Of a stretch of 64,000 nt of DNA, positions 61,656 through 63,347 are shown in pieces. A model generated the notes under the pieces. That model was not told the origin of the DNA. It did no database searches and saw only the letters and a program-made list of their open reading frames with translations. How positions within the stretch are numbered: position 1 is the first letter of the stretch; each line of letters begins with the position of its first letter. Both the position numbers and the translations under genes were made by a program. The stretch lies in assembly GCF_057098645.1 (NCBI RefSeq), contig NZ_CM169472.1; one strand, 5' to 3'.

Positions 61656-62369
61656 ATGATTAAAAATTTGCCGCAAATAGTGTTGTTGAATATTGTCGGC
61701 CTCGCGCTGTTTCTTTCCTGGTATATTCCCGTTAATCATGGATTCTGGTTGCCGATTGATGCGGATATTTTTTATTTCTTTAATCAGAAACTGGTCGAAA
61801 GTAAGGCCTTTTTATGGCTGGTTGCATTGACCAACAATCGCGCTTTCGACGGTTGTTCACTGCTGGCGATGGGAATGTTGATGCTGAGTTTCTGGCTGAA
61901 AGAAAACGCTCCAGGCAGACGACGTATCGTGATTATTGGTCTGGTCATGCTATTAACTGCAGTGGTATTAAACCAGCTGGGTCAGGCATTAATTCCTGTA
62001 AAACGGGCCAGCCCAACATTGACTTTTACCGATATTAACCGCGTCAGCGAACTGCTCTCTGTCCCCACGAAAGATGCCTCACGAGATAGCTTTCCCGGCG
62101 ATCACGGCATGATGCTGCTTATTTTTTCGGCATTCATGTGGCGTTATTTCGGCAAAGTTGCAGGTCTTATCGCCCTTATTATTTTTGTGGTTTTTGCGTT
62201 TCCCAGAGTAATGATTGGCGCACACTGGTTTACTGACATCATTGTCGGTTCGATGACCGTGATATTGATCGGTTTGCCCTGGGTGTTGCTGACGCCATTA
62301 AGTGATCGATTAATCACCTTTTTTGACAAATCACTACCGGGAAAAAACAAACATTTCCAAAACAAATAA
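61656..62369 (+). CDS. lpxT: Lipid A 1-diphosphate synthase (PAP2 family)
   Basis: 237 aa from ATG 61656. Polytopic membrane protein with PAP2-like motifs. Confidence 0.85.
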   Translation: MIKNLPQIVLLNIVGLALFLSWYIPVNHGFWLPIDADIFYFFNQKLVESKAFLWLVALTNNRAFDGCSLLAMGMLMLSFWLKENAPGRRRIVIIGLVMLLTAVVLNQLGQALIPVKRASPTLTFTDINRVSELLSVPTKDASRDSFPGDHGMMLLIFSAFMWRYFGKVAGLIALIIFVVFAFPRVMIGAHWFTDIIVGSMTVILIGLPWVLLTPLSDRLITFFDKSLPGKNKHFQNK

Positions 62370-62780
62370 CTCACAGTAATTAACATCATCAGGTTTATTT
62401 TTATAGTGAGGATAATCCTGATGATGCGCACCGTGCTTTCATCTATCGAACGCAAAAATCATTCTCTAAGTAAATGAATGGATTGCATGCGTTTCACTCA
62501 ATCGTACTTTAATTGACCAATCCCGCTTATTAACTTTCTGTATCACTTTTTCTTATAAAAAATCATGTAAAACCGCTCGCCAAGACCGCACCAATCGGGT
62601 AATCTCGAACTCGTTTTGCCTCGGCGGTAGATTATCCTCACAGCATATAATTTTGTGCGTTAGTCCACAGATTTGGCCTTAAGGAATTGTTTCAACATGC
62701 CCAGGTAATTAGTCTCGTGTCGCTTGGCATTTTTTTATAACGATATTTGTCGTTAAGGACTTCAAGGGAAAACAAACAAC

Positions 62781-63347
62781 ATGGTCAAATCTCAACCGAT
62801 TTTGAGATATATCTTGCGCGGGATCCCCGCGATTGCAGTAGCGGTTCTGCTTTCTGCATGTAGTGCAAATAACACCGCAAAGAATATGCATCCTGAGACA
62901 CGTGCAGTGGGTAGTGAAACATCATCACTGCAAGCTTCTCAGGATGAATTTGAAAACCTGGTTCGTAATGTCGACGTAAAATCGCGAATTATGGATCAGT
63001 ATGCTGACTGGAAAGGCGTACGCTATCGTCTGGGCGGCAGCACTAAAAAAGGTATCGATTGTTCTGGTTTCGTACAGCGTACATTCCGTGAGCAATTTGG
63101 CTTAGAACTTCCGCGTTCAACTTACGAACAGCAGGAAATGGGTAAATCTGTTTCTCGCAGTAATTTGCGTACGGGTGATTTAGTTCTGTTCCGTGCCGGT
63201 TCAACAGGACGCCATGTCGGTATTTATATCGGCAACAATCAGTTTGTCCATGCTTCCACCAGCAGTGGTGTTATTATTTCCAGCATGAATGAACCGTACT
63301 GGAAGAAGCGTTACAACGAAGCACGCCGGGTTCTCAGCCGCAGCTAA
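62781..63347 (+). CDS. mepS: NlpC/P60 murein DD-endopeptidase lipoprotein
   Basis: Lipobox LSACS and catalytic Cys region DCSGFV. 188 aa. Confidence 0.92.

Follow-up and report, generated by a model that had tools for sequence, protein, structure and literature searches.

Intrinsic terminators release the RNA ≈7–9 nt past their stem, and E. coli RNA polymerase requires a U-rich tract for this hairpin-driven release. REP/BIME extragenic palindromes, which also lie between genes, stabilize the mRNA upstream of them. The closest described counterparts of the element that we discuss here are Rho-dependent E. coli transcripts, which carry precise 3' ends directly after stable stem-loops without U-tracts (Dar & Sorek 2018, PMC6061677). 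These ends show an enrichment of C over G downstream, are made by PNPase/RNase II trimming, and leave the mRNA protected; the same study suggested the possibility that a terminator switches class by gaining or losing uridines and discussed inefficient intrinsic termination backed by Rho as a transition state (PMC6061677). A further described system occupies the same intergenic region as our element. The downstream gene, mepS, has two promoters, P1 and P2, and a pairing site for OxyS at G37–G47 of the short (P1) and G146–G156 of the long (P2) mRNA (Elgrably-Weiss et al., PMC10798246).

The lpxT–mepS spacer and its inverted repeat

The window analyzed here is a stretch of 64,000 nt of E. coli DNA (NCBI RefSeq assembly GCF_057098645.1, contig NZ_CM169472.1). 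Its open reading frames and the RefSeq annotation, together with the translation in the case of lpxT, place lpxT, encoding Kdo2-lipid A phosphotransferase, at 61656..62369 and mepS at 62781..63347, both on the + strand; the K-12 MG1655 locus tags are b2174 and b2175, respectively. LpxT is a lipid A phosphotransferase that consumes undecaprenyl-pyrophosphate, and MepS is a cell-wall endopeptidase. Between the lpxT stop codon (62367–62369) and the mepS ATG at 62781 lies a spacer of 411 bp with a GC content of 0.35–0.40, for which K-12 MG1655 and the RefSeq E. coli genomes carry no annotation other than the flanking lpxT and mepS. An earlier reading of this DNA from its letters alone (the sequence-only reading) had described ≈410 bp of AT-rich non-coding DNA upstream of mepS, and this description is accurate. 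The segment 62340–62800 is matched in 5,425 of 5,426 complete E. coli genomes at 95 to 100% identity, once per genome. To relate published K-12 data to the window, we subtracted 2,207,198 from the NC_000913.3 position; four SNPs separate the two sequences within 62300–62800. We verified this offset on the 3' end of the mepS terminator, where 2270620 converts to 63422, a position 8 nt into the T-run that follows the GC stem, where the end of a canonical terminator should lie.

The perfect 10-bp inverted repeat that had been noticed in the spacer is present, with arms CATCATCAGG at 62384–62393 and CCTGATGATG at 62417–62426. These arms lengthen to 15 nt with one mismatch (62384–62398 and 62412–62426). 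When the intergenic region is dinucleotide-shuffled, a perfect 10-bp repeat with a loop of ≤40 nt turns up in 2.3% of the shuffles; in the window as a whole, we counted 14 hairpins of this kind versus 2.3 expected. As + strand RNA, the 43 nt of the element (62384..62426) fold into a 19-bp stem at −20.0 kcal/mol; dinucleotide shuffles fold to −6.3 ± 2.1 kcal/mol, giving z = −6.5, and none of 200 shuffles does as well. The K-12 allele, with a G at 62394, forms 20 continuous pairs at −23.7 kcal/mol. The perfect 10-bp repeat makes up the lower stem, and the upper stem is rich in A-U and G.U pairs. Because the upper stem uses G.U pairs, the + strand folds better than the minus-strand RNA of the repeat, which reaches only −14.2 kcal/mol, 5.8 kcal/mol worse. 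The stem is followed by CGCACCGTGC, with one T in eight positions, so that the T-run is missing just as the sequence-only reading had stated, and a terminator scan did not call the hairpin at 62384–62426. An Rfam scan of this region of the window at a permissive E-value gave a best E of 0.37, far under the gathering score, and a scan of five orthologous loci gave no match. A repeated-element origin of the hairpin was rejected on the grounds that the region is single-copy in the 5,425 E. coli genomes.

Conservation across Enterobacteriaceae

To compare the element between species, we used the mepS loci of 80 Enterobacteriaceae species, which together with the window gave 81 hairpins. The upstream neighbor of mepS is lpxT in 79 of the 80 species, and LpxT identity outside Escherichia is only 64 to 82%. 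In most of these 79 species, the lpxT–mepS spacer measures ≈410–426 bp despite its poorly conserved center. A stable hairpin occurs just past the lpxT stop codon, at an equivalent position, in nearly all 80 species, most commonly in the form CAUCAGGGAUCG-UUUU-CGAUCCCUGAUG. Salmonella, Kluyvera, Siccibacter, and Atlantibacter have wholly different stem sequences in which the pairing is kept, as in the stems CCTTCAGCGATGG...CATCGTTGAAGG of Salmonella and AAAAAGAGGGC...GCCCTCTTTTT of Kluyvera.

The alignment in which we assessed covariation was made with MAFFT, without fitting it to a structure. Compensatory changes are found in 14 of the 14 helix pairs tested, in counts over 81 sequences that ignore kinship. 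Paired cells amount to 79.9% versus 66.5% in shuffles (0 of 500 as high, with kinship again ignored) and fall to 27 to 45% when the 3' partner is slid by one to three columns; cells changed on both sides number 148 versus 52 expected, a comparison that likewise disregards kinship. The + strand gives the more stable fold in 45 versus 29 fixed ortholog windows (p = 0.006). Conservation across the 80 species settles the inverted repeat as real, and the suggestion in the sequence-only reading that it might form a regulatory RNA structure is borne out as far as structure at the RNA level is concerned.

Only orthologs from other genera, ≈19–22 of the 81 sequences, have a T-run after the hairpin (Kluyvera, Klebsiella, Atlantibacter, Siccibacter, Yokenella, Trabulsiella, Buttiauxella, Cedecea, and others); in these, the two together make a canonical, textbook intrinsic terminator of lpxT. 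The T-run is absent from ≈60 of the 81, including Escherichia, Salmonella, Citrobacter, most Enterobacter, and Kosakonia. Because the ortholog hairpins lie at the matching position and some of them carry a T-run, the element can be identified as a terminator hairpin that lineages without a U-tract have kept. This 80-species set is a clean single-locus example in which the terminator hairpin is kept and the U-tract comes and goes.

One part of the element is conserved in sequence as well. The core CAGGGATC-N6-GATCCCTG, with its two GATC Dam sites, does not differ between 15 species from at least nine genera, although LpxT itself is only ≈65 to 75% identical among them. This is more identity than a structural role would demand, and it hints at a further partner that recognizes the sequence. 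Beyond the hairpin, the spacer is poorly conserved between 62427 and ≈62530, and the part from ≈62535 to the mepS ATG, which holds the P2 and P1 promoters, the mepS UTRs, and the OxyS site, is very highly conserved.

RNA ends and promoters around the hairpin

The hairpin begins 14 nt downstream of the lpxT stop codon. Term-seq data for K-12 (PMC7815308 supplementary file 1; Adams et al. 2021) include a curated 3' end at 2269627 (+) in LB at OD600 0.4, which corresponds to 62429 in the window, 3 nt past the last base of the stem, with CCTGATGATGCGC immediately before and ACCGTGCTTT immediately after the mapped end (PMC7815308). Of the two LB conditions compared, this end was curated at OD 0.4 and not at OD 2.0. 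It is classed as "orphan" only because it lies 60 nt past the lpxT stop codon and the "primary" class of that study is confined to distances of ≤50 bp. Given that this + strand 3' end falls 3 nt past the stem, the boundary at 62429 is the end of the lpxT transcript. Mapping transcript ends in the spacer had been proposed from the sequence, and this is the boundary that such mapping reveals; it assigns an orphan Term-seq end to lpxT and gives the gene a 3' UTR of 60 nt. The literature yielded nothing specific on lpxT transcription or termination.

The position of this end is informative about how it arises. The mepS terminator in the same dataset has its 3' end 8 nt after the GC stem. The lpxT end lies at +3, not within a U-tract at +7 to +9, and this fits trimming. 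No Rho score is attached to 2269627 in PMC7815308, and neither lpxT nor mepS has a Rho termination region listed in supplementary file 2 of that study, a result that is only weakly informative since lpxT is weakly expressed (read count 1323). Base composition changes past the hairpin: the C/G ratio is 1.7–1.9 over the 100–186 nt beyond the stem versus 1.3 in the last 100 nt of lpxT, and the GC skew is negative (−0.16 to −0.20). The C-rich, G-poor spacer at 62427..62612 (+ strand; C/G 1.9) is rut-like by composition and is thus a candidate zone for Rho loading and termination. No other part of the intergenic region is as poorly conserved, and SNPs within the species occur in it.

We consider it probable, with good confidence, that the inverted repeat forms a conserved stem-loop at the 3' terminus of lpxT mRNA, that this stem-loop is a terminator lacking a U-tract, and that the RNA 3' end would be produced by Rho and subsequent trimming. 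The fold, its strand, its conservation and covariation, and the mapped end are observed, and the roles of Rho and the exonucleases are inferred. The curation of the end in one of the two LB conditions and the identity of the core across genera count against this view. In E. coli, RNA polymerase would mostly read through the lpxT hairpin, Rho would then terminate transcription within the untranslated 62427–62612, and PNPase and RNase II would trim the RNA tail back to the stem. The hairpin would shield the lpxT mRNA from further 3'-to-5' decay, and the arrangement would insulate the mepS promoters from lpxT transcription.

The mepS starts can be placed from the OxyS site. Nucleotides 25–35 of K-12 OxyS (CCCUUGAAGUC) are complementary to 62758–62768 (+ strand; GACTTCAAGGG), which is the sole 11-nt match beginning and ending in G and overlaps the mepS ribosome-binding site; pairing at this site is supported by the experiments in PMC10798246. 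From its location and the published numbering, transcription from P1 is deduced to start at 62722, with a short 5' UTR of 59 nt (62722..62780), and transcription from P2 at 62613, with a long one of 168 nt (62613..62780), both on the + strand. The conservation profile and the published P2 delimit a conserved P2 promoter region at 62535..62612 (+), in which we distinguish an AT-rich block (62535–62568) and, as a putative −10 hexamer, TAATCT at 62600–62605. This AT-rich block, CTTTCTGTATCACTTTTTCTTATAAAAAATCATG, is near-invariant in the family and lies at −78 to −45 from the deduced P2 start; it may be an UP element or the binding site of some regulator. A CRP-like inverted repeat, TGTGC-N6-CCACA, conserved across genera, is located at 62654–62669, inside the P2 leader, with its center at −60.5 from the deduced P1 start, near a class I CRP position.

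Of the known mepS starts, P2 is the most distal, and the hairpin ends at 62426, 187 nt upstream of it. The repeat is thus not in the known mepS leader, and with mepS starts at 62613 and 62722, it lies outside the mepS transcript. The proposal of a ≈410-nt mepS leader containing the repeat therefore has to be given up. Like the assignment of the orphan end to lpxT, this correction is mostly housekeeping: the known leader does not exceed 168 nt, in place of the 410 nt proposed.

Two further sets of Term-seq ends fall near or within mepS. Ends located 4–6 nt before the ATG, at 62775–62777 and just past the OxyS/ribosome-binding site, correspond to K-12 positions 2269975 (LB OD 0.4) and 2269973 (LB OD 2.0). 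The former was scored as Rho-independent with an intrinsic-terminator score of 1.3, and LB OD 2.0 has no such scores; these ends may be processing products or small-RNA-linked products. Within the mepS coding sequence, a perfect 10-bp inverted repeat, CATCCTGAGA...TCTCAGGATG, with a 38-nt loop spans 62889–62946, and a strong 3' end present in both LB conditions (2270136; window 62938) maps to the start of its right arm.

Many relatives of E. coli carry one more element in the spacer, just downstream of the hairpin. A Pho box, CTGTCAT-N4-CTGTCAY, is found on the + strand at a fixed position, −341 to −347 from the mepS ATG, in 40 of 80 orthologs. All 40 match at least 12 of the 14 core positions, eight match all 14, and a TAAAAT-like −10 sits 12 nt downstream; when the intergenic regions are shuffled, 0.5% of trials give ≥12 matches. 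The score is 9 of 14 in Escherichia, which is background, and 10 of 14 in Salmonella. The box aligns to ≈62433–62452 of the window, where E. coli holds a decayed remnant, and it appears to have been lost in Escherichia. The main texts of two E. coli PhoB regulon studies make no mention of lpxT or mepS, a silence that agrees with the degenerate E. coli box. For the relatives, these data predict a PhoB-dependent distal mepS promoter with a ≈300-nt leader and hence phosphate-starvation control of MepS, the genera concerned being Citrobacter, Enterobacter, Leclercia, Phytobacter, Kosakonia, Kluyvera, and Klebsiella.

Origin of the lpxT 3' end and relation to known systems

The explanation closest to the one we prefer differs from it only in how the 3' end arises: the hairpin might be a weak, non-canonical intrinsic terminator, perhaps aided by NusA/NusG, with slight nibbling accounting for the end at +3. 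The long and stable stem, its descent from and positional match to canonical terminators, the lack of a listed Rho termination region nearby (PMC7815308), and the published notion of inefficient intrinsic termination backed by Rho as a transition state (PMC6061677) all speak for such a terminator. Nevertheless, we regard it as unlikely, considering that the tail CGCACCGUGC holds a single U in eight positions, that the consensus terminator scan makes no call, and that the end is found at +3 rather than +7 to +9. The phrase "rather than a terminator" in the sequence-only reading is misleading. With no U-tract, the E. coli hairpin is not a canonical intrinsic terminator, yet it occupies the position of the canonical lpxT terminators of other genera. 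A regulatory structure inside a ≈410-nt mepS leader would instead tie the repeat to the downstream gene. In its favor, the intergenic length (about 413–416 bp) is strikingly constant across genera, the Pho-box promoter just past the hairpin in many relatives would give a leader of ≈300 nt, and a perfect 12-nt complement joins the hairpin loop (62406–62417) to the long mepS UTR (62630–62641). Set against these points are the mepS starts at 62613 and 62722 given by the published numbering, the presence of an RNA 3' end and not a 5' end at the hairpin, the location of the relatives' Pho-box promoter likewise downstream of the hairpin, the absence of the 12-nt complement from E. albertii and other Escherichia, and the poor conservation of the stretch between hairpin and P2, the least conserved of all; we give this possibility hardly any credence.

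The symmetry of the sequence also allows a reading at the level of double-stranded DNA, as an operator bound by a dimeric transcription factor that acts on lpxT or mepS. This is the protein-binding site that had been offered as an option, and the conservation in many genera of the CATCAGG/CCTGATG lower stem and of the core CAGGGATC...GATCCCTG would suit it. However, compensatory changes preserve the pairing even where the stem sequence is entirely different, as in Salmonella and Kluyvera, the G.U pairs create a strand asymmetry, the loop is T-rich on one strand only, any known promoter is >180 bp away, and an RNA end maps to the base of the hairpin, all of which render an operator very improbable. 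The least credible reading, to which we attach next to no weight, takes the region as a promoter, TTAACA-16 nt-TATAGT (62380–62407), and/or as an 18-codon ORF starting at ATG 62421 (MMRTVLSSIERKNHSLSK). Although the promoter matches at 10 of 12 positions and a GAGGA ribosome-binding site lies 7 nt before the ATG, the single promoter match compares with 2.9 expected by chance in the scanned region, its −10, part of the non-conserved loop, differs in other Escherichia, the predicted start at ≈62414 would remove the GAGGA, and PMC10798246, which mapped the mepS promoters, reports only P1 and P2. The ORF was also rejected as a candidate in its own right: it is frameshifted in Escherichia sp. L004 and poorly conserved, and the 3' end at 62429 lies 9 nt into it.

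The 12-nt perfect complement mentioned above, GTGAGGATAATC/GATTATCCTCAC, links the loop and right arm of the hairpin with nt +18 to +29 of the long mepS mRNA. The complement is statistically intriguing, as we estimate ≈0.01 such pairs by chance in the region, and it is invariant in seven E. coli strains; the longest matches in E. albertii and other Escherichia are 4–7 nt. As a functional pairing, it was rejected and is treated as chance or recent, being confined to E. coli proper. A last proposal, which we think highly unlikely to be right, would make the hairpin more than a passive end-cap, with a core recognized by a specific partner and a loop that pairs with mepS mRNA. The core CAGGGATCG-UUUU-CGAUCCCUG is identical in at least nine genera, and its fixed site directly before the Pho-box promoter could mean that a specific RNA-binding protein or RNase recognizes it and so couples lpxT to phosphate- or envelope-responsive mepS expression. 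In E. coli proper, the loop GUGAGGAUAAUC of a stable lpxT 3' fragment could pair with the long mepS mRNA in trans or, on read-through transcripts, in cis.

We return to the U-tract-less terminator as the preferred reading and compare it with the described systems. Like a canonical intrinsic terminator, the lpxT hairpin lies shortly past a stop codon and has a terminator-like stem energy (−20.0 kcal/mol); unlike one, it is found in E. coli without a U-tract (one T in eight), has its 3' end at +3, and has an upper stem that is rich in A-U and G.U pairs and not GC rich. It resembles REP/BIME palindromes as an intergenic hairpin able to block 3' exonucleases but differs from them in that it lacks the REP consensus, occurs once per genome in 5,425 E. 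coli genomes, and is vertically inherited at one locus. The OxyS-regulated 5' UTR of mepS (PMC10798246) belongs to the same intergenic region, with the repeat outside and upstream of it. The protective stem-loops of Dar & Sorek share its stable stem, precise 3' end, lack of a U-tract, excess of C over G downstream, and weakly expressed gene, and the lpxT 3' stem-loop is probably an ordinary member of this known class; it differs from those cases in that Rho dependence and PNPase/RNase II trimming are here probable rather than established. It goes beyond their proposal in one respect: the U-tract turnover among the orthologs corresponds to the evolutionary switch between intrinsic and Rho-dependent termination that they put forward (PMC6061677), and these orthologs display the change between U-tract and no U-tract at a single locus.
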